DNA from: Escherichia coli
GTDB lineage: Bacteria > Pseudomonadota > Gammaproteobacteria > Enterobacterales > Enterobacteriaceae
Length of the DNA stretch: 64,000 nt
Direction: 5' to 3' (one strand)
Assembly: GCF_003991155.1 (NCBI RefSeq)
Contig: NZ_CP031293.1
Positions 3,206 through 45,835 of the stretch are shown one piece after another; within the stretch, counting starts at the first letter, position 1, and every line of letters starts with the position of its first letter. The notes below the pieces were generated by a model that was not told the origin of the DNA, made no database searches, and saw only the letters and a program-made list of their open reading frames with translations. Made by a program: the position numbers and the translations under genes.

Positions 3206-3793
3206 ATGAAAAAAAAGGTTCTGGCAATAGCTCTGGTAACGGTGTTTACCGGTACAGGTGTGGCGCAGGCTGCTGACGTAACAGCTCAGGCTGTAGCGAC
3301 CTGGTCAGCAACAGCCAAAAAAGACACCACCAGTAAGCTGGTTGTGACGCCACTCGGTAGCCTGGCGTTCCAGTATGCCGAAGGCATTAAAGGTTTTAAC
3401 TCACAGAAAGGTCTATTTGACGTGGCTATCGAGGGTGACTCAACGGCTACCGCCTTTAAACTGACCTCACGTCTTATCACCAACACCTTAACCCAGTTGG
3501 ATACCTCAGGTTCCACACTGAATGTGGGCGTGGATTATAACGGCGCGGCAGTCGAAAAAACTGGCGATACCGTGATGATCGATACCGCCAACGGCGTACT
3601 GGGCGGCAACCTTAGCCCGCTGGCTAACGGTTACAATGCCAGCAATCGTACCACCGCACAGGATGGTTTCACTTTCTCCATCATCAGCGGCACCACCAAT
3701 GGTACCACCGCAGTAACCGATTACAGCACTCTACCGGAAGGCATCTGGAGCGGCGACGTTAGCGTACAGTTCGACGCGACCTGGACCAGTTAA
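3206..3793 (+). CDS. ecpA: E. coli common pilus major subunit
   Basis: 195 aa with signal peptide [22 protein letters not shown]; recognised as EcpA/MatB. Confidence 0.9.
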
Positions 3794-37514: not shown

Positions 37515-38972
37515 GTGTCTGAACTGTCTCAATTATCTCCACAGCCGCTGTGGGATATTTTTGCCAAAATCTGTTCTATTCCTCACCCGTCCTATCATGA
37601 AGAGCAACTCGCTGAATACATTGTTGGTTGGGCAAAAGAGAAAGGTTTCCATGTCGAACGCGATCAGGTAGGTAATATCCTGATTCGTAAACCTGCTACC
37701 GCAGGTATGGAAAATCGTAAACCGGTCGTCTTGCAGGCCCACCTCGATATGGTGCCGCAGAAAAATAACGACACCGTGCATGACTTCACTAAAGATCCTA
37801 TCCAGCCTTATATTGATGGCGAATGGGTTAAAGCGCGCGGCACCACGCTGGGTGCGGATAACGGCATTGGTATGGCCTCTGCACTGGCGGTTCTGGCTGA
37901 CGAAAACGTGGTTCACGGCCCGCTGGAAGTGCTGCTGACCATGACCGAAGAAGCCGGTATGGACGGTGCTTTTGGCTTACAGAGCAACTGGTTGCAGGCT
38001 GATATTCTGATTAACACCGACTCCGAAGAAGAAGGTGAAATCTACATGGGTTGTGCGGGGGGTATCGACTTCACCTCCAACCTGCATTTAGATCGTGAAG
38101 CGGTTCCAGCTGGTTTTGAAACCTTCAAGTTAACCTTAAAAGGTCTGAAAGGCGGTCACTCCGGCGGTGAAATCCACGTTGGCCTGGGTAATGCCAACAA
38201 ACTGCTGGTGCGCTTCCTGGCGGGTCATGCGGAAGAGCTGGACCTGCGCCTTATCGATTTCAACGGTGGCACACTGCGTAACGCCATCCCGCGTGAAGCC
38301 TTTGCGACGATTGCTGTCGCAGCTGATAAAGTCGACGCACTGAAATCTCTGGTGAATACCTATCAGGAGATCCTGAAAAACGAGCTGGCAGAGAAAGAGA
38401 AAAATCTGGCATTGCTGCTGGACTCTGTTGCGAACGATAAAGCTGCCCTGATTGCGAAATCTCGCGATACCTTTATTCGTCTGCTGAACGCCACCCCGAA
38501 CGGTGTGATCCGCAACTCCGACGTGGCAAAAGGCGTGGTCGAAACCTCCCTGAACGTCGGTGTGGTGACCATGACTGACAATAACGTAGAAATTCACTGC
38601 CTGATCCGTTCTCTGATCGACAGCGGTAAAGACTACGTGGTGAGCATGCTGGATTCTCTGGGTAAACTGGCTGGCGCGAAAACCGAAGCGAAAGGCGCAT
38701 ATCCTGGCTGGCAGCCGGACGCTAATTCTCCGGTGATGCATCTGGTACGTGAAACCTATCAGCGTCTGTTCAACAAGACGCCGAACATCCAGATTATCCA
38801 CGCGGGCCTGGAATGTGGTCTGTTCAAAAAACCGTATCCGGAAATGGACATGGTTTCTATCGGGCCAACCATTACCGGTCCACACTCTCCGGATGAGCAG
38901 GTTCATATCGAAAGCGTTGGTCATTACTGGACACTGCTGACTGAACTGCTGAAAGAAATTCCGGCGAAGTAA
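37515..38972 (+). CDS. pepD: Cytosol nonspecific dipeptidase (aminoacyl-histidine dipeptidase)
   Basis: 485 aa; recognised. Confidence 0.9.
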   Translation: MSELSQLSPQPLWDIFAKICSIPHPSYHEEQLAEYIVGWAKEKGFHVERDQVGNILIRKPATAGMENRKPVVLQAHLDMVPQKNNDTVHDFTKDPIQPYIDGEWVKARGTTLGADNGIGMASALAVLADENVVHGPLEVLLTMTEEAGMDGAFGLQSNWLQADILINTDSEEEGEIYMGCAGGIDFTSNLHLDREAVPAGFETFKLTLKGLKGGHSGGEIHVGLGNANKLLVRFLAGHAEELDLRLIDFNGGTLRNAIPREAFATIAVAADKVDALKSLVNTYQEILKNELAEKEKNLALLLDSVANDKAALIAKSRDTFIRLLNATPNGVIRNSDVAKGVVETSLNVGVVTMTDNNVEIHCLIRSLIDSGKDYVVSMLDSLGKLAGAKTEAKGAYPGWQPDANSPVMHLVRETYQRLFNKTPNIQIIHAGLECGLFKKPYPEMDMVSIGPTITGPHSPDEQVHIESVGHYWTLLTELLKEIPAK

Positions 38973-39278
38973 TAACGATAACGTCCACGCCTGCGGGCGT
39001 GGACTTCTGTTTGAAGCCAATGGCTATCTATATCGAAATAACAAAACATTATGAAACTCATGAAAAGGTCGCATATTTATATAGCTGCGACCATATTTCA
39101 TGGGGGGAGTTTCTGATCACCAAAGAAAGTTTTGCGCTGGAATCCGTGAAAGAACTTAAGGGTGAAAAGCAGAATTTTTATATGTTCAGAGCCTGGGGCA
39201 AAGTCAGGAAAACATACTTAGCCACGGGAGAATTTCCCCAGGAAACATGTTACGCCGCTTAAAGTCAGAATTATTTTT

Positions 39279-39842
39279 TCATGCATTTACCATTTTGGCA
39301 TTACGCCTGTACCACATGGCAATGGCGGCAACCACTAATGCCAGTTCAAGTAAAAACGACCAGTGTAATAAAAAATTGAGCCACCACGGATGATGTACCG
39401 CCGTAATATGAAAGAGTGCAAAGGGTTGGTTAACGAAAGGCATCAACCACCAGATATCACCGACCAGCGTATCGAGTAATAAATGCACGATACCATTCAG
39501 GCAAAACACCACGCCCAACCACGCCGGAAGTTTATTCTTCGCAATTGCGGCCCAAACTAATGTCGCCGCCAGCAGAGCAAACCATAATAATGGCCAATGA
39601 GACGGGTAAAGATGATGATGGCGTTGCCCGTTATCAACCAGATAGCACCAGAAAAGATCAAAATCGGGCGCAATGGCCCCAACTAAGCCAATAACCATCG
39701 CCCAGCGCGCATGACGAGCAATCAGTGGCAAGCGTTTCACTAAAGTACAAGTTATTAAATAACCAGCCGGAAGATGACCGATAAACATGACGATTCCTTT
39801 CGTTTTGCCCGCCGCTTTCATATAGAAAACGGCGGGAGACAT
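39279..39842 (-). CDS. Polytopic inner-membrane protein, His-rich (metal-dependent hydrolase-like)
   Basis: 187 aa with multiple TM segments and H-rich motifs; family assignment tentative. Confidence 0.45.
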   Translation of the reverse strand: MSPAVFYMKAAGKTKGIVMFIGHLPAGYLITCTLVKRLPLIARHARWAMVIGLVGAIAPDFDLFWCYLVDNGQRHHHLYPSHWPLLWFALLAATLVWAAIAKNKLPAWLGVVFCLNGIVHLLLDTLVGDIWWLMPFVNQPFALFHITAVHHPWWLNFLLHWSFLLELALVVAAIAMWYRRNAKMVNA

Positions 39843-39849
39843 TCCTCAA

Positions 39850-40464
39850 TTACACAGCAACAAAAGCCATCCCTGTAAATGTCCGTCGCGGGTTGCCACG
39901 TTCAATCTGGTGATGGAACATTCGCCGCTGCGATTTCAGCACCGCGCTATTTTCCTGTTGCTGTTGTTCCAGCTTCCATGCAATCAGCAATCGCGCCAGC
40001 CGCTTGTTAGCATGCTGACTACGCTCTGACTGAACCTTCACGCTAATTCCGGTAGCCAAATGCGTGGCGCGTACCGCCGAGTCGGTTTTATTGACATGTT
40101 GACCGCCCGGCCCCGACGAACGCAGCGTCTCATAACGGATCGCGTCGGATTGCTCCTGCTCATCAGCGGTAAAACGCCCAATGCCCAGAAACCAGTTTTT
40201 GCGCCTATGATGAGGCCGATACGGACTCGGACAAATCCACTGAATAGTGCCGCACCAACTTTCGCTTAATGCCCATGCGTTATCGCCATCCAGAGAAACC
40301 AGCGCTGAACGCAGCGTGTCAGAGTAGCGGCCCGTTTCTGTTTCCAGCACCGTTACCGCGACGTCTTGTCGGGTAGCTTCTTTAATCAGCCTGTCCAGCG
40401 CCTTTTTCACTGCCAGGCAACATTCTTCCGGCCCCTGAGCTGAGGAGAGTTGTAGCAAGATCAT
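39850..40464 (-). CDS. prfH: Peptide chain release factor homolog PrfH (full length)
   Basis: [40 protein letters not shown] (GGQ motif); start taken at [11 protein letters not shown]. Confidence 0.7.
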
Positions 40465-41600
40465 CCTTTTTTCCCTCCACTGTTTTTGAGCGTTAGCACC
40501 GGACGCAGTCGCGCGACAGGAATAATTAACCCAGCCTGCACCAGACATTGCACCACGCTTTCAGCCGATTTATAAGCTTGTGGCGCTTCTTCAAAGATGA
40601 GTTGTTTATCGCGACAAATTACCCGGCTGCCAAGTTCAGTACGTGAGAGCTGCGTCGCTGTGTATTTCGCTGCCAGACGCCCTTTACACTCAGTACGTCC
40701 CCATTTGCGCCCTGCCCCATGCGCCAGCGAGTGGAGCGTTTTTTCGTTCGCAACAGGTTTAACCAGCCAGGAGTAATCGCCGCGTGAACCGGGAATAATC
40801 ACCAGACCGTTGTCATCCGGCGTGGCGCCTTTACGATGCAACCAGCCCTGTTGATCGCCGATTTGGCACGCGCTAACAAAGTTATGCGCCACATCCAGAA
40901 CCGGACTTCCGGTGGCCTTAACTTGTTGCATTATGCGCAAAGCGATCAGCTGGCGATTAATACGCGCAAACGCCAGCGCATCATCATGTTCCACAATATA
41001 ACTTAGCGCGTCGTCACTGCCTTCAGGCAAACCATGATGCGAAAACGAGGCAATATGCCGCTGTAAAATAGACTGGCCCAAACCCCGCGAGCCGCTATGA
41101 ACCAGCAGTTGCAGATGCTGCGCATCCAGACCTGTCAGTGCAAACAGTTCAGCGTCGATAATTTGATCAACTTGTTGCAGTTCTGCGAAGTGGTTTCCGC
41201 CACCGATGGAACCCAGCGAGCTGCGCCACGGATGCTGTGCTAACGCTGACGGCAGGTTTTCCTCCAGCCAGCTTTCTTCAGCAACGTCATCCAGCGCAGA
41301 TAATCGCTTTTCAAACTTATCGGCGTTGTATTTGCGCGCGAAAATATCTGTTTGCCATAGCGCCATACCGCAGCCGATATCATTGCCGACCAGTGCCGGG
41401 TAAAAACGGCCTACGGAGAAGAACGCTGCGCCAATCGGATAGCCGCGTCCGGGGTGTAAATCTGGCATCCCTACTACGCGTTGCATGTCGGGTAAATTTG
41501 CCGTGGTGTGTAATTGTTGGATCGCTAAACTCTCGATCCACAGGTCATCAGATGCGATGGTAAATACCGCATCGGATAAGGGACGAATATATTTGCCCAT
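40461..41600 (-). CDS. RtcB-family RNA ligase paralog (prfH-associated)
   Basis: About 380 aa with His/Cys-rich RtcB-like motifs; stop overlaps prfH start. Confidence 0.7.
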
Positions 41601-41790
41601 GTACCATTCCATTTATGAATAAAAATCAGGAAATGGCAGACGAATCCAGGGCAAGAAAAAAAGAATTAATCCTGGAAAGGTCTGCAAAGAGTCATTGATA
41701 AAGGATTTGTCATGATTTACCTCCTTGCAGTTTGTGGAATAAGAAAACGCGCACATACTAGGCGGGCGTTATTTTCTTTGCAAGCTGGAT

Positions 41791-42243
41791 TTAATGTTGC
41801 GGTTTATATCGCATATAAAAATTAGTAAACCACGCTCCCCGGCATTCAACGCGCTGCTGCTTAACTGTCTGAAAACCATAACGTTCAAAAAAGGGTTTTG
41901 CGGTTATGCTGGCATCTACCGTTAGTTCGGATTCAGACTTAATCAAAGGTTTTAACAAAGCGCTGGCAACCCCACGGCGGGTGTATTCAGGGTCAACAAA
42001 TAACATATCGATATAGTGTTCAACGCAGGTAATAAAGCCGACCAGTTTTGCATTAATGACTGCAACCCGCACTTGTGATTTCGCGAGTTTCTCCTTCCAG
42101 CGAGATTCGTCAATCTGCGCCCAGGCGGCAATTTGTTGTGGTGAATAATGCTGACTGGCGGTCATCGTAACCGCTCTAAGGAAAATAGCGCATAGTTGCT
42201 GAAAATCGCCAGGCTGATAGTTTCTTATTTGTATGTTATTCAT
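41791..42243 (-). CDS. yafP: GNAT-family acetyltransferase
   Basis: 150 aa; start codon overlaps dinB stop (ATGA). Confidence 0.8.
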
Positions 42244-43295
42244 AATCCCAGCACCAGTTGTCTTTCCATTTGAGGGTCAAGTAACGTCACATGCAGCCCC
42301 ACCAGACGCACACCGCGCCCGCCACGGCGTTCATTCCAGGTTTTACGCGCGGTGGCGATTAAGTCAGCTTTATTCAGCCGCGGCCAGACGTGCTCCTGAG
42401 TGGTTTGCTGAAAATCATCAAACTTTAATTTCACCCCCTGGCGAGCAATCAGTAAATCAGGTTTTACCTTTGCCAGACGGCGTTCAAGTTCAGGATACAG
42501 CCGCTCAATAATCGCTTCACATTCAGACCAGTGATGAATATCTTCCGCCATCGTGCGTTCCACGCCGACGGATTTTCGCAACCGTTCGCTGTTAACGTCG
42601 CGCTCGTCAATCCCCTGACTACGCTCCCACAAAATGCGTCCAAATTTGCCAAAACGTTTGAGCAGAGTCACCAGATCACACTTTTGCACATCACCGCAGG
42701 TCCGCAGCCCCATCGCTTCCAGTTTTGCCGCCGAGACTTTGCCGACGCCGGGAATTTTTGCCAGCGGTAAGGTTTGCAGAAATGCCGGAACTTCTGCCGG
42801 CGTAATCACAAACTGACCGTTGGGTTTATTCATGTCGGAAGCAATTTTGGCGAGAAACTTTACCGGCGCAACGCCCGCAGATGCCGTCAGTTGCAGCTCG
42901 TTAAAGATCGTCTGGCGGATTTCCTGGGCGATGAGGGTCGCGGAGCCGTGGCAATGCACACTATCGGTGACGTCGAGATAGGCTTCATCCAGTGATAACG
43001 GTTCAATGCGCGAGGTATAGCGCGAGAAAATTTCGCGGATATGATTTGAGGCTTCTTTGTAGGCGTCAAAGCGCCCTGGAAGCAGCGTGAGATGTGGGCA
43101 TAATTTGAGCGCCATCCCTGTCGGCATAGCGCTGCGTACGCCAAATTTACGCGCGGGATAATTGGCGGTGCTGATCACCCCCCGACGTTCGCGGCTGCCG
43201 CCAATAGCAATAGGGATATCGCGCAGGGCAGGATTGTCGCGCATCTCCACCGCTGCGAAAAAGCAGTCCATATCCACATGAATGATTTTACGCAT
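42240..43295 (-). CDS. dinB: DNA polymerase IV
   Basis: 351 aa [22 protein letters not shown]... Confidence 0.9.
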
Positions 43296-43365: not shown

Positions 43366-44256
43366 TTAACGCGTTCGCTGTGAAAGCACCTGCTGCTTAT
43401 CCAGCTTTTGCACCAGCGGCTGCACCACTTTATCCCCATGCTGACCAAAGTATTGATACAGCGTATCGGACGCGCTTTTAGTCAGCACCATAATCTCAAT
43501 GCGCCGGTTGCCCGCGCTTTGCGGATTTTTCGCGTCCAGCAGCATCTGGTCCGCCATTGCGCTCACCTGCATCACTTTATCTTCCGGCATTCCTGCCTCT
43601 TCCAGCACCCGACGAGCCGAAAGCGCGCGGTCACCCGAAAGGTTCCAGTTGTTGTAGATATTGTTTTTGTAGGCCATCGCATCGGTATGCCCGGTAATAA
43701 TAATTTTGTTATCGAGCGAGTCGAACACTGGCGCGAGCTCCACCAGCAGCGTTTTAAAGAACGGCATAATCTGCGCGCTGCCACGTTCGAACATATTGCG
43801 ATTCTGGTCGTCTTTAATCAGCACGCGTAATCCCTGCGGGACAATCTCCATCTCCAGATTCGCTTCCATATGCGCATCACGGGCAATGGTGTTGATACTG
43901 GTTGCCAGCTCACCAAGCTCGGTGGCGGATTTCTTCTTCAGCAGCGCCGTTTTCTCGTTGACGTCGCGCGCTTTTTTCTCCGTTTCTTCCGGCACCGCCA
44001 CGGTGGCAGGTTTTGACGGATGAGACGGGCTGATTTTATTTAACGGCGACAGCCCACCACCGTTAAAAATCGACTGCCCGTGCAGCGCGGCGATAATGCT
44101 TTCACGCTCGGATTTACTGACGCTGTTGACAATCAACTTTATCGTCGTCACCAAAGGGGCCGAGCGTATTTCCGAGGTTTCTGCCCGCTTTACCCTGGAC
44201 GCGATGCCCGGCAAGCAGATGGCGATTGACGCCGATCTTAACGCCGGGTTGATCAA
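43366..44256 (-). pseudogene. lafU: Flag-2 remnant: MotB-like LafU fragment (C-terminal OmpA-like domain retained)
   Basis: C-terminal ..IIITGHTDAMAYKNNIYNNWNLSGDRALSARRVLEEAGMP... MotB/OmpA-like; N-terminus lacks the expected TM anchor; frame overlaps lfhA remnant. Confidence 0.55.
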
Positions 44257-45835
44257 TCAGGCGCAGGCGCAGACCCGGCGTAAAGATGTTGCCAGCGAGG
44301 CCGATTTCTACGGCGCGATGGACGGGGCATCGAAGTTTGTGCGCGGGGATGCCATCGCCGGGATGATGATTCTGGCGATCAACCTGATCGGCGGCGTCTG
44401 TATCGGGATCTTCAAATACAACCTGAGCGCCGACGCCGCCTTCCAGCAGTATGTGCTGATGACCATCGGCGACGGGCTGGTGGCGCAGATCCCTTCCCTG
44501 CTGCTCTCCACCGCGGCGGCGATTATCGTCACCCGCGTCAGCGACAACGGCGATATCGCCCATGACGTGCGCCACCAGCTGCTGGCAAGCCCGTCGGTGC
44601 TCTACACCGCCACCGGGATCATGTTTGTGCTGGCGGTGGTGCCGGGGATGCCGCATCTGCCATTTTTGCTGTTCAGCGCCCTGCTTGGCTTTACCGGCTG
44701 GCGGATGAGCAAACGCCCGCAGGCGGCGGAGGCGGAAGAGAAAAGCCTCGAAACACTGACCCGCACCATCACCGAAACCAGCGAGCAACAGGTCAGTTGG
44801 GAAACCATTCCGCTGATCGAGCCTATCAGCTTAAGTCTCGGCTACAAGCTGGTGGCGCTGGTGGACAAAGCGCAGGGGAACCCGCTCACCCAGCGGATTC
44901 GCGGCGTGCGGCAGGTGATATCCGACGGCAACGGCGTGCTGCTACCGGAGATCCGCATTCGGGAAAACTTCCGCCTCAAGCCCAGCCAGTACGCCATTTT
45001 CATCAACGGCATTAAGGCTGATGAAGCGGATATTCCGGCGGATAAACTGATGGCCCTGCCCTCCAGTGAAACCTACGGTGAGATTGACGGCGTGCTGGGG
45101 AACGACCCGGCGTATGGGATGCCGGTCACCTGGATCCAGCCCGCGCAGAAGGCGAAGGCGCTGAATATGGGGTATCAGGTGATCGACAGCGCCAGCGTAA
45201 TTGCCACACATGTGAATAAGATTGTGCGCAGCTATATTCCTGACCTCTTTAACTATGACGATATTACGCAGTTGCATAACCGCCTGTCGTCGATGGCACC
45301 GCGCCTGGCGGAGGATTTGAGCGCGGCGCTCAATTACAGTCAGTTGCTGAAAGTGTACCGGGCGCTGCTGACCGAAGGCGTTTCCCTGCGCGATATCGTC
45401 ACCATCGCCACCGTGCTGGTTGCCAGTAGCGCGGTGACCAAAGATCATATTCTGCTGGCGGCTGATGTGCGCCTGGCGCTGCGGCGCAGCATTACCCATC
45501 CGTTCGTTCGCAAACAGGAGCTGACGGTGTATACGCTGAATAATGAGCTGGAAAATCTGCTGACCAACGTAGTGAATCAGGCGCAACAGGGCGGCAAAGT
45601 GATGCTCGACAGCGTGCCGGTGGACCCGAATATGCTTAACCAGTTCCAGAACACGATGCCGCAGGTGAAGGAGCAGATGAAAGCGGCGGGGAAAGACCCT
45701 GTGCTGCTGGTGCCTCCGCAGTTGCGCCCTTTGCTGGCGCGCTACGCAAGGTTGTTTGCGCCGGGGCTGCATGTGCTGTCGTATAACGAAGTGCCGGACG
45801 AGCTGGAGTTGAAGATTATGGGGGCGTTGATGTAG
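44096..45835 (+). pseudogene. lfhA: Flag-2 remnant: FlhA-like LfhA fragment (N-terminally truncated)
   Basis: 579 aa FlhA-like C-terminal region (..FVRGDAIAGMMILAINLIGG..) without the N-terminal membrane domain. Confidence 0.6.

Follow-up and report, generated by a model that had tools for sequence, protein, structure and literature searches.

An intact RtcB2-PrfH ribosome rescue and repair operon of Escherichia coli preceded by a putative PA5471.1-type leader

The window, a 64,000-nt stretch of Escherichia coli DNA, carries on its minus strand a pair of overlapping genes, rtcB2 (41600..40461; 1140 nt, 379 aa) and prfH (40464..39850; 615 nt, 204 aa), each of which is uninterrupted and closed by a single terminal stop. 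As read from the sequence, the rtcB2 stop TGA (40463-40461) and the prfH start ATG (40464-40462) share a 4-nt ATGA overlap (40461..40464, minus strand) with GGAGGG/AAGGA directly upstream of it, and a 4-nt overlap of the two genes is likewise found at the loci of Salmonella, Klebsiella, Citrobacter, Enterobacter, Cronobacter, Pragia, Kosakonia and P. aeruginosa. Longer forms of both genes appear in the program-made list of open reading frames, 383 aa from 41612 for rtcB2 and 232 aa from 40548 for prfH; since the HMM matches start at residues 5 and 30 of these forms, respectively, the shorter starts fit, and the RefSeq starts agree with them. The RefSeq annotation of E. coli 2016C-3878, which is 100% identical to the window, consists here of exactly rtcB2 (WP_000521546.1, coordinates equal) and prfH (WP_000602130.1). 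An earlier note on this DNA had described a full-length RtcB-family gene overlapping the start of a full-length prfH, a GGQ-motif release-factor homologue, and this description is borne out by the overlap and by the end-to-end family matches given below, whose scores are far above anything expected by chance; neither gene has a frameshift, a premature stop or a missing catalytic residue. Neither PADLOC nor PHROGs had any match to RtcB2, PrfH, a YdjM-like protein encoded downstream or an 80-aa protein.

The RtcB2 protein matches the RtcB-family equivalog NF007153 (the same as PRK09588) at 640 bits against a cut-off of 407, covering positions 1-378 of the 379 in the model, as well as TIGR03073 release_rtcB over the full length at 622 bits (cut-off about 272, more exactly 271.8) and the Pfam RtcB family (PF01139) at 8e-74. 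The characteristic motifs are all in place, namely NDIGCG (D74, C77), GGGNHF (N136, H137), H168, H239 and LAHGAGR (H294). The seven residues D74, C77, N136, H137, H168, H239 and H294 align with D95, C98, N202, H203, H234, H329 and H404 of Pyrococcus horikoshii RtcB, its metal ligands and GMP-histidine nucleophile, all of which are conserved in RtcB2. The rtcB2 product is, as predicted from these features, an intact 3′-phosphate/5′-OH RNA ligase of the PrfH-coupled RtcB subfamily. It belongs to the same fold family (PF01139) as the E. coli RtcB1 encoded by rtcBA and shares its ligation chemistry, whereas the two proteins are only about 28% identical and have mutually exclusive substrates; RtcB1 is partnered by RtcA and controlled by RtcR/sigma-54, while RtcB2 is partnered by PrfH and regulated differently. 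No RtcB2 structure is present in the PDB.

The PrfH protein matches TIGR03072 release_prfH (IPR017509) at 329 bits against a cut-off of 166.65 and spans all 200 positions of the model. The GGQ motif at residues 120-122, within the RF-1 domain, is unchanged across 16 orthologues. Like RF1/RF2 and ArfB, PrfH has the GGQ domain PF00472, but it lacks RF domain 1, and residues 6-190 of its 204 align to residues 115-303 of RF2 (about 115-305 overall), covering domains 2-4 only; instead of a stop codon, as read by RF1/RF2, or an empty mRNA channel, as read by ArfB, PrfH reads a damaged rRNA end. Residues R83, H85, H86, R88 and R189, which contact A1493P and C1054 (PMC9304027), are all retained in the window protein together with the AQGP motif at 9-12, so that the A1493-3′-phosphate pocket and the rRNA contacts are complete, and across the aligned family R83, R88, R189, G11 and P12 never vary. 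The prfH product is accordingly predicted to be an intact release factor H, a GGQ peptidyl-tRNA hydrolase. Only 6 of 202 residues differ from PDB 7SA4 chain 8, the ATCC 25922 protein solved on the damaged ribosome.

The gene pair as such is not new: it is the RtcB2-PrfH operon already characterised in E. coli, present here in intact form. The ATCC 25922 pair, a rescue and repair system for ribosomes (PMC9304027, PMC9223846, PMC13166195; PDB 7SA4), lies at the same locus between yafP and pepD, encodes proteins of 379 and 204 aa with the same ATGA coupling, and is identical to the window pair in all named contact and catalytic residues. The differences are few: the window PrfH has G87R, located between the pocket residues H86 and R88, K20 in place of R20 and a C-terminal VAV in place of IEG, and 12 residues of RtcB2 are substituted when it is compared with the EC958 copy, which served as a proxy for ATCC 25922. 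The earlier note's proposal of a candidate ribosome/RNA-repair module is thus correct as to the repair module, but "candidate" understates the case, since the ATCC 25922 pair has been characterised. Work published in 2022 showed that the RtcB2-PrfH pair rescues ribosomes cut at 16S A1493/G1494 and repairs them; PrfH has been seen on the damaged ribosome by cryo-EM (PMC9304027), the pair protects against colicin E3 in vivo (PMC9223846), and translating ribosomes are repaired by it (PMC13166195).

The best explanation of the locus as a whole, which we hold to be very likely, is a two-gene rescue and repair operon for A1493/G1494-cut ribosomes with a putative PA5471.1-type leader upstream. The relevant toxins would be decoding-centre ribotoxins such as colicin E3 and the CdiA-CT of Enterobacter cloacae, which cut 16S rRNA between A1493 and G1494. 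When a cut ribosome stalls, PrfH, lacking domain 1, would occupy the A site and read the 3′-phosphorylated A1493 end with no stop codon involved, and its GGQ motif would hydrolyse the peptidyl-tRNA, so that the ribosome could then be split. RtcB2 would subsequently reseal the 16S break on the 30S subunit by Mn2+/GTP-dependent chemistry, joining 3′-phosphate or 2′,3′-cyclic-phosphate ends to 5′-OH ends via a histidine-GMP intermediate, the histidine here being H294, and the ATGA overlap would couple the translation of the two proteins. These steps have been demonstrated with the near-identical ATCC 25922 proteins, and by that identity the window proteins are expected to perform them as well.

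A broader role, in which the pair would mainly act in the general rescue of ribosomes that stall under antibiotics or other stress on translation, a function reported for PA5470, and not specifically on toxin-cut ones, appears unlikely. It would be in keeping with the orthology of the operon to armZ-PA5470 of P. aeruginosa, which is induced by ribosome-targeting drugs and whose PA5470 product is reported to relieve macrolide-induced stalling, with the leader common to the two operons, and with the finding that a PrfH subfamily with a C-terminal tail also rescues intact stalled ribosomes (PMC12829566). The window PrfH, however, is of the tail-less type with its 204 aa, the E. coli PrfH released peptide on damaged 70S only and gave none from intact 70S, the authors of that work hold the A1493/G1494 cut to be the one lesion it recognises, and EcRtcB2 was specific for cleaved 30S and inactive on RtcB1 substrates (PMC9304027).

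Of 5,426 complete E. coli genomes, 2,674 (about 49%) contain the interior of the operon, and in about half the locus is deleted. In K-12 the locus had been described by the earlier note as degraded, and MG1655 indeed annotates ykfJ and prfH as pseudogenes. Alignment with the K-12 genes reveals a deletion of about 1.03 kb, corresponding to 41393..40376 of the window, that joins rtcB2 codon ~69 to prfH codon ~33 across the 9-nt near-repeat TACCCG(G/A)CA; in addition, K-12 has a 129-bp insert directly upstream of the ykfJ start. Given such losses, and the position of G87R next to the pocket residues, the pair in the window strain might be viewed as a decaying or inactive relic as well, yet this is highly improbable, as neither reading frame is shortened or lacks a catalytic residue, at least 1000 contigs encode identical proteins, the exact PrfH protein among them, and intact orthologues have G, R, A, K or Q at position 87, the C-terminal tripeptide likewise varying naturally within the family. 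The strain, like approximately half of E. coli, retains what looks like a functional antidote to decoding-centre ribotoxins, one that is lost from K-12, BL21 and O157:H7, and the presence or loss of rtcB2-prfH bears on the choice of strains for work on colicins or contact-dependent inhibition.

The 190-nt spacer 5′ of rtcB2 contains a promoter-like site, a strong Shine-Dalgarno (SD) sequence, a 15-codon mini-ORF and three covarying helices, all on the minus strand. The promoter-like site, TTGCAA-N17-TAGTAT, is read from the sequence at 41755..41783, upstream of the leader; it scores 8 of 12 against the consensus and, with a scanner threshold of 9, is not listed by a simple promoter scan, while 15 of 20 taxa have the pattern TTGCnn-N17-TAnnAT at 41-50 nt 5′ of the AUG of the mini-ORF. 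The mini-ORF, MTNPLSMTLCRPFQD with its stop included, occupies 41666..41713 behind the SD AAGGAGG at 41726-41720, and is intact in K-12. Within it lies a conserved RNA box, CUUUGCAG (41682..41689), which is complementary to GCAAAG adjoining the leader SD and the 3′ half of which is the 5′ arm of helix P1. P1 (41685-41680 with 41641-41636) encloses P2 (41675-41671 with 41650-41646), and together they constitute a leader hairpin (41636..41685) with the stop codon of the mini-ORF in the P2 loop. The third helix, P3 (41604..41636), pairs CCAUUUCC at 41636-41629 with GGAAUGG at 41610-41604, which is located 3 nt 5′ of the rtcB2 AUG and is likely the SD of rtcB2; an extended P3, UGCCAUUUC/GGAAUGGUA, belongs to the minimum-energy structure when the RNA is folded free. 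The fold of the single E. coli leader sequence is not distinctive (z = -1.5), and hence for the leader it is the comparative evidence alone that carries weight.

The plan of an SD followed by a mini-ORF recurs at all 20 beta- and gammaproteobacterial rtcB2-prfH loci examined, P. aeruginosa PA5471.1 included, the mini-ORF having 15 codons in all nine Enterobacterales, 13 in eight other taxa and 19 in three. The SD and the AUG are invariant, and the frame is kept open at these lengths while its sequence changes freely. In 14 taxa the distance of the CUUUGCAG box from the AUG is 18 or 24 nt and that to the stop 21 nt, and as the box is read in another frame in three taxa, the RNA and not the peptide is what is conserved. 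Over 18 leader sequences 89% of cells are paired and six pairs are changed on both sides, these pair counts being taken from an alignment fitted to the covariance model itself, and on four of five measures none of 500 shuffles reaches the observed value. P1 is paired in 98% of cells, one of its pairs occurring as AU, GU, GC and UG; P2 has three pairs with changes on both sides; and P3 is paired in 84% of cells with an AU/UA swap in its central pair, compared with at most 46% in slid-partner controls. A covariance model built from 13 non-aeruginosa leaders finds one site only in the window and matches the PA5471.1-armZ leader (L094 1584-1873) at 36.4 bits with a rough E-value of about 3e-7, whereas nothing below E 0.1 was found in about 65 RF1/RF2 control loci. 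These negative controls stem from the pattern scan for PrfH, in which G[PA]GGQHVN and ERSQHANK also match RF1/RF2; among the matches listed, about 13 of 79 loci were true prfH, none of them enterobacterial, and the remaining RF1/RF2 loci served as the controls.

That the mini-ORF is incidental and the conserved spacer only a promoter with 5′-UTR structure, with no sensing in E. coli, appears quite improbable. The MG1655 annotation lists no gene at the mini-ORF, a search of 38900-42400 against Rfam found nothing at E up to 1, and the N-terminal half of the peptide is not conserved, all of which would suit such a reading; against it stand the invariant SD and AUG, a frame open at 15, 13 or 19 codons despite free sequence change, the fixed 21 nt from box to stop, and the homologous ORF of P. 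aeruginosa, which is experimentally required for regulation.

The correspondence with P. aeruginosa extends over the entire operon. The armZ (PA5471)-PA5470 operon is orthologous to rtcB2-prfH, with ArmZ 61% identical to RtcB2 and PA5470 60% identical to PrfH, the 4-nt gene overlap and membership in NCBIfam family PRK09588. The two leaders share TTGCnn-N17-TAnnAT, GCAAAGGAGG, a short ORF with CUUUGCAG 21 nt before its stop, a GUCUGCC box and GGAUUGG before AUGGGCAA. The P. aeruginosa copy of the leader ORF, MIQFSTLCRLRLA, fits the description of PA5471.1 as a 13-aa peptide with Q3 and F4 about 250 nt upstream, the identification being by such published descriptors and not by a published sequence. 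Differences are also evident, as the P. aeruginosa ORF has 13 codons against 15 in E. coli and is separated from the main gene by 212 nt against 65 nt, and ArmZ has gained an anti-repressor role toward MexZ via its C-terminal helix. We infer that the leader found in E. coli represents the enterobacterial version of PA5471.1, which mediates stall-dependent induction of the armZ operon (PMC13041342, PMC3516279, PMC12057347); this mode of regulation has been demonstrated in P. aeruginosa and would extend to E. coli by homology. The leader links two literatures on one gene pair that hardly cite each other, and as a concrete, testable regulatory element it concerns operon control in E. coli, which is not discussed in the literature found; the E. 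coli RtcB2-PrfH papers found make no mention of it.

In the proposed arrangement, a constitutive-type promoter, a translated 15-codon leader and then P1, P2 and P3 would precede the operon, and the leader probably keeps expression low under normal leader translation and allows more of it upon early stalling of ribosomes on the mini-ORF. This would resemble ermC/cat-type attenuators in the short leader, the choice of downstream helices by ribosome occupancy and the placement of the main-gene SD in a helix; in contrast to them, there is no sequence relation, and ribosomes would be sensed by their stalling at the leader start or close to it and not at a drug-specific arrest peptide. According to a second-hand report, K-12 ykfJ is inducible by 4-azaleucine.

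The leader might instead act, in the way proposed for PA5471.1, by ending transcription prematurely at an intrinsic or Rho-dependent terminator, and not by masking of the ribosome-binding site, an alternative we regard as a serious one while holding it to be less than probable. The published P. aeruginosa model is one of transcription attenuation with segment 3:4 as the terminator, although a 2025 review says that this model still needs confirmation, and the simple scan found no canonical hairpin-plus-U-tract terminator between the leader ORF and the main gene in either E. coli or P. aeruginosa. In non-enteric leaders the mini-ORF is followed by 87-212 nt of untranslated RNA, often C-rich, as would suit termination, whereas enteric ones have only 60-72 nt from the mini-ORF stop to the rtcB2 AUG, with the SD-like GGAAUGG paired in the conserved P3. 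The modelled accessibility of the ribosome-binding site is static in most non-enteric leaders, and its opening is modest in the enterics, from 0.23-0.36 to 0.39-0.50 in seven of nine only.

If masking by P3 operates, the leader could possibly make the repair operon self-inducing by the very damage it repairs, a suggestion we offer tentatively, as a model. Colicin-E3-cut ribosomes are reported to accumulate at start codons (PMC13166195). With ribosomes stuck at the start of the leader ORF, the region of its SD would be occupied and the CUUUGCAG box available for P1, and P1 formation would loosen the P3 helix by which the ribosome-binding site of rtcB2 is masked. The competing helix, in which the box pairs with the leader SD region, has no covariation, and as it is 91% complementary with both sides invariant, the counts are uninformative either way. 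In the literature found, of which Morita et al. 2009 was not a part, such self-induction via the leader was not found stated for E. coli. If true, it would tie the P. aeruginosa work on the ArmZ/MexXY drug response to that on E. coli RtcB2-PrfH repair, and armZ-PA5470 would at root be a ribosome-repair operon.

The order dinB-(yafP)-rtcB2-prfH-pepD-gpt is kept in Salmonella, Klebsiella, Citrobacter, Enterobacter, Cronobacter and Kosakonia. The YdjM-like gene downstream was considered as a third member of the operon and rejected, because it is missing at the same locus in these six genera and in 94% of E. coli genomes. Unlike ATCC 25922, the window strain has an extra segment of about 0.84 kb downstream of prfH.

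The rtcB2 and prfH genes both lie on the minus strand and are uninterrupted, with rtcB2 running from the ATG at 41600 to the TGA at 40461 (1140 nt, 379 aa) and prfH from the ATG at 40464 to the TAA at 39850 (615 nt, 204 aa), each with a single, terminal stop. The rtcB2 stop and the prfH start share an ATGA at 40464-40461, directly upstream of which GGAGGG and AAGGA motifs can be read inside rtcB2. A mechanical ORF list gives longer variants of 383 aa (rtcB2) and 232 aa (prfH), of which the family models start at residues 5 and 30, respectively, so the shorter starts fit. RtcB2 scores 640 bits against NF007153 (cut-off 407, model positions 1-378 of 379) and 622 bits against TIGR03073 "release_rtcB", PrfH scores 329 bits against TIGR03072 (cut-off 167, model positions 1-200 of 200), and the Pfam domains of the pair are RtcB and RF-1. 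E. coli 2016C-3878 (NZ_CP029747) matches the window at 100% identity, and its RefSeq annotation has exactly the same two CDS. The full-length RtcB-family gene overlapping a full-length prfH that the earlier note had described is therefore confirmed, with neither a frameshift nor a premature stop in either ORF.

The catalytic residues are likewise in place in both proteins. In an alignment of RtcB2 to solved RtcB chains, the computed counterparts of P. horikoshii RtcB Asp95 and Cys98 are D74 and C77 (NDIGCG), those of Asn202 and His203 are N136 and H137 (GGGNHF), and those of His234, His329 and His404 are H168, H239 and H294 (the last in LAHGAGR); they are the RtcB metal ligands and the histidine that carries the GMP. 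The GGQ motif of PrfH occupies positions 120-122, and the first 202 residues differ at six positions from the ATCC 25922 protein bound to a damaged 70S ribosome (PDB 7SA4, chain 8), namely K20R, V56I, R87G, T138S, V175A and V202I, with the window residue first. The residues contacting the 3′-phosphorylated A1493 end and C1054, R83, H85, H86, R88 and R189 (PMC9304027), are all retained, and the single change near the pocket is glycine to arginine at position 87, which is G, R, A, K or Q among 16 intact orthologues, in which R83, R88 and R189 are invariant. The last three residues are VAV instead of IEG because the downstream indel begins there, and the C-terminus is variable across the family in the same 16-orthologue alignment. 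The exact window PrfH protein is found in at least 1000 contigs.

The E. coli PrfH releases peptides only if the 70S ribosome has been cleaved by CdiA-CT or ColE3-CT between A1493 and G1494, and RtcB2 reseals the cut specifically on the 30S subunit, RtcB1 and RtcB2 having mutually exclusive substrates (PMC9304027). The operon shields ATCC 25922 from colicin E3, and BW25113 with its truncated operon is unprotected (PMC9223846). Translating ribosomes are also repaired, and cut ribosomes pile up at start codons (PMC13166195). The near-identity of the proteins suggests that the mechanism in the window strain would be that of the ATCC 25922 pair. At 204 aa, the window PrfH is of the tail-less E. 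coli type, unlike the second subfamily, which is defined by a C-terminal tail (PMC12829566). The pair proposed as a candidate ribosome/RNA-repair module belongs to a system that has already been characterised (PMC9304027, PMC9223846, PMC13166195); the finding holds up and was read correctly, but it is not new, and intact copies of the locus are common.

The K-12 locus is degraded, as the earlier note had stated. The MG1655 annotation lists ykfJ and prfH as pseudogenes, and in the alignment K-12 lacks window positions 41393..40376, a ~1.03-kb deletion between rtcB2 codon ~69 and prfH codon ~33 whose sides join across TACCCGGCA / TACCCGACA, in agreement with the truncation described by Baranov et al. 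2006 and in PMC9304027. The deleted form is also present in BL21(DE3) and O157:H7. A probe lying wholly within the deletion and counted at ≥80% coverage was found in 2,674 of 5,426 complete E. coli genomes (49%), and in the RefSeq annotations sampled from these both genes are called intact. Salmonella, Klebsiella, Citrobacter, Enterobacter, Cronobacter and Kosakonia have the common order dinB-(yafP)-rtcB2-prfH-pepD-gpt-frsA-crl, which makes possession of the intact pair the ancestral condition in enterobacteria. K-12 additionally carries a 129-bp insert (3335-3463 of its locus) between window positions 41619 and 41616, which places it downstream of the mini-ORF and ahead of the ykfJ start, in the loop of leader helix P3; the insert resembles an intergenic repeat of the ERIC/IRU type and may be one.

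Upstream of the interval covered by the earlier note (39850-41600), yafP and rtcB2 are separated by a 190-nt spacer that is conserved between genera. Its minus strand carries a promoter-like TTGCAA-N17-TAGTAT (41783-41755) and a Shine-Dalgarno sequence AAGGAGG (41726-41720), both read from the sequence, the latter preceding a 15-codon mini-ORF MTNPLSMTLCRPFQD (41713..41666). Helix P1 pairs GCAGAC (41685-41680) with GUCUGC (41641-41636), helix P2 pairs CCAGG (41675-41671) with CCUGG (41650-41646) and holds the mini-ORF stop codon in its loop, and helix P3 pairs CCAUUUCC (41636-41629) with GGAAUGG (41610-41604), 3 nt before the rtcB2 AUG. Each of the 20 beta- and gammaproteobacterial rtcB2-prfH loci examined has the Shine-Dalgarno sequence and mini-ORF, with 15 codons in 9/9 Enterobacterales, including Pragia with its different genomic neighbourhood, 13 codons in eight other taxa and 19 in three. 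The N-terminal residues of the leader peptide vary freely across taxa, whereas the RNA box CUUUGCAG is fixed: in 14 taxa it follows the AUG by 24 or 18 nt and precedes the stop by 21 nt, and in three taxa it lies in a different reading frame, which argues for a constraint on the RNA and on the ribosome start and stop sites, not on the peptide.

The helices are supported by comparison. When 13 short leaders are aligned with MAFFT, 89% of the cells are paired, versus at most 48% with slid partners. A covariance model built from these 13 and searched over 0.75 Mb finds a single site in the window and, outside its training set, the leaders of K-12 (109 bits, across the 129-bp insert), Cupriavidus (83 bits), P. 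aeruginosa (36 bits, a rough E-value of ~3e-7), and Pseudoalteromonas, Massilia and Delftia (23-30 bits), with nothing below a likewise rough E of 0.1 in ~65 RF1/RF2 loci. In the 18-sequence model alignment, which is fitted to the structure, 6 of 17 pairs have changed on both sides, one P1 pair being seen as AU, GU, GC and UG; for four of the five measures, no shuffle out of 500 reaches the value of the real alignment, and with slid partners pairing is at most 46%. A putative alternative helix between GCAAAG beside the leader Shine-Dalgarno sequence and CUUUGC in the box is 91% complementary, with both sides invariant.

The first rtcB2 codons (41591-41600) are conserved at the nucleotide level as ATGGGCAA, encoding MGN or MGK, from E. 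coli to Massilia and Hyphomicrobium, which suggests that the start region is itself part of the regulatory RNA or under an initiation-related constraint. In three Bacteroidota prfH loci among the matches listed, the ORFs ending at the prfH start have 205, 510 and 36 codons and are not a ~380-aa RtcB2 with an MGN start, and the leader model has no convincing match in these three; the locus organisation thus differs there.

The P. aeruginosa locus encodes a 379-aa RtcB-family protein and a 204-aa PrfH with 61% and 60% identity to the window proteins and the same 4-nt overlap, a pair known in the literature as ArmZ (PA5471, "PRK09588", "RtcB-like RNA ligase") and PA5470/PrfH. The leader peptide of that operon, PA5471.1, is described as 13 aa long, its third codon specifying Q and its fourth F, and as lying ~250 nt upstream, and the ORF MIQFSTLCRLRLA at -254 fits this description. 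The operon is induced when ribosomes stall on PA5471.1, whether because of drugs or of defects in suhB, cca, fmt or folD, and a codon-3 stop or deletion of the leader gives high expression. The E. coli leader is a further member of the PA5471.1-type leaders and a reasonable short experimental target. A 2012 review names K-12 ykfJ as a homologue induced by 4-azaleucine. The words ArmZ, PA5471, PA5470 and aeruginosa are absent from the three E. coli RtcB2-PrfH papers cited above, and the PrfH papers cited here do not mention a leader; an earlier notice of the enterobacterial leader, for instance in Morita et al. 2009, is possible. Neither the E. coli nor the P. aeruginosa leader-peptide string was found in the literature searched, Rfam has no family for the leader, and a generic entropy screen placed the spacer merely at rank 98.

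When the leaders were folded with ViennaRNA with the ribosome-covered stretch masked, the rtcB2 ribosome-binding site was computed to be mostly paired in an extended P3 in the free RNA or with a ribosome at codon 8 or the stop (unpaired probability 0.21-0.36). With a ribosome on the leader start, the full P1 forms and the probability rises to 0.39-0.50 in 7/9 enterics; the modelled opening is modest and absent in most non-enteric leaders. A ribosome stalled at the leader start might accordingly be modelled as allowing P1 to form and so freeing the rtcB2 ribosome-binding site, in the same direction as the P. aeruginosa codon-3-stop result and the start-codon arrest of colicin-cut ribosomes (PMC13166195). 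A simple scan finds no canonical terminator in the E. coli or the P. aeruginosa leader, hence translational masking, Rho-dependent termination or a non-canonical terminator are possible modes.

A segment of ~0.84 kb (39010-39845) separates prfH from pepD, its indel beginning within the last three prfH codons. One of its genes (39788..39279, minus strand) encodes a YdjM-family "metal-dependent hydrolase" of 169 aa (Pfam PF04307, 1e-8), and another, convergent to it (39020..39262, plus strand; GC ~41%), encodes an 80-aa hypothetical protein; neither protein has a match in PADLOC, PHROGs or NCBIfam. Only 325 of 5,426 complete E. coli genomes carry the segment, and in six other enterobacterial genera the locus lacks it; both proteins are also named in E. 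fergusonii. The gap from the prfH stop to the start of the YdjM-like gene holds an inverted repeat CCCGCCG-N15-CGGCGGG (39808-39836, minus strand) with no T-run after it; strains without the segment have a different hairpin there, CTGCCGGAAGGCG..CGCCATCCGGCAG. Directly after pepD, a 9-bp GC-rich hairpin GTCCACGCC-TGCG-GGCGTGGAC (38983-39004) with a T-rich tail on the plus strand (5 T in 8 bases; the scan lists the minus strand too) is likely the pepD terminator. On the other side of the module, dinB and yafP overlap directly at 42240-42243, and the K-12 yafN-yafO toxin-antitoxin pair between them is absent in the window, EC958 and Klebsiella. Further on, at 43366-45835, the RefSeq lafU and, following it, an flhA-like gene without its N-terminus are a remnant of the lateral-flagella (Flag-2) cluster; EC958 instead has an intact motA beside lafU.
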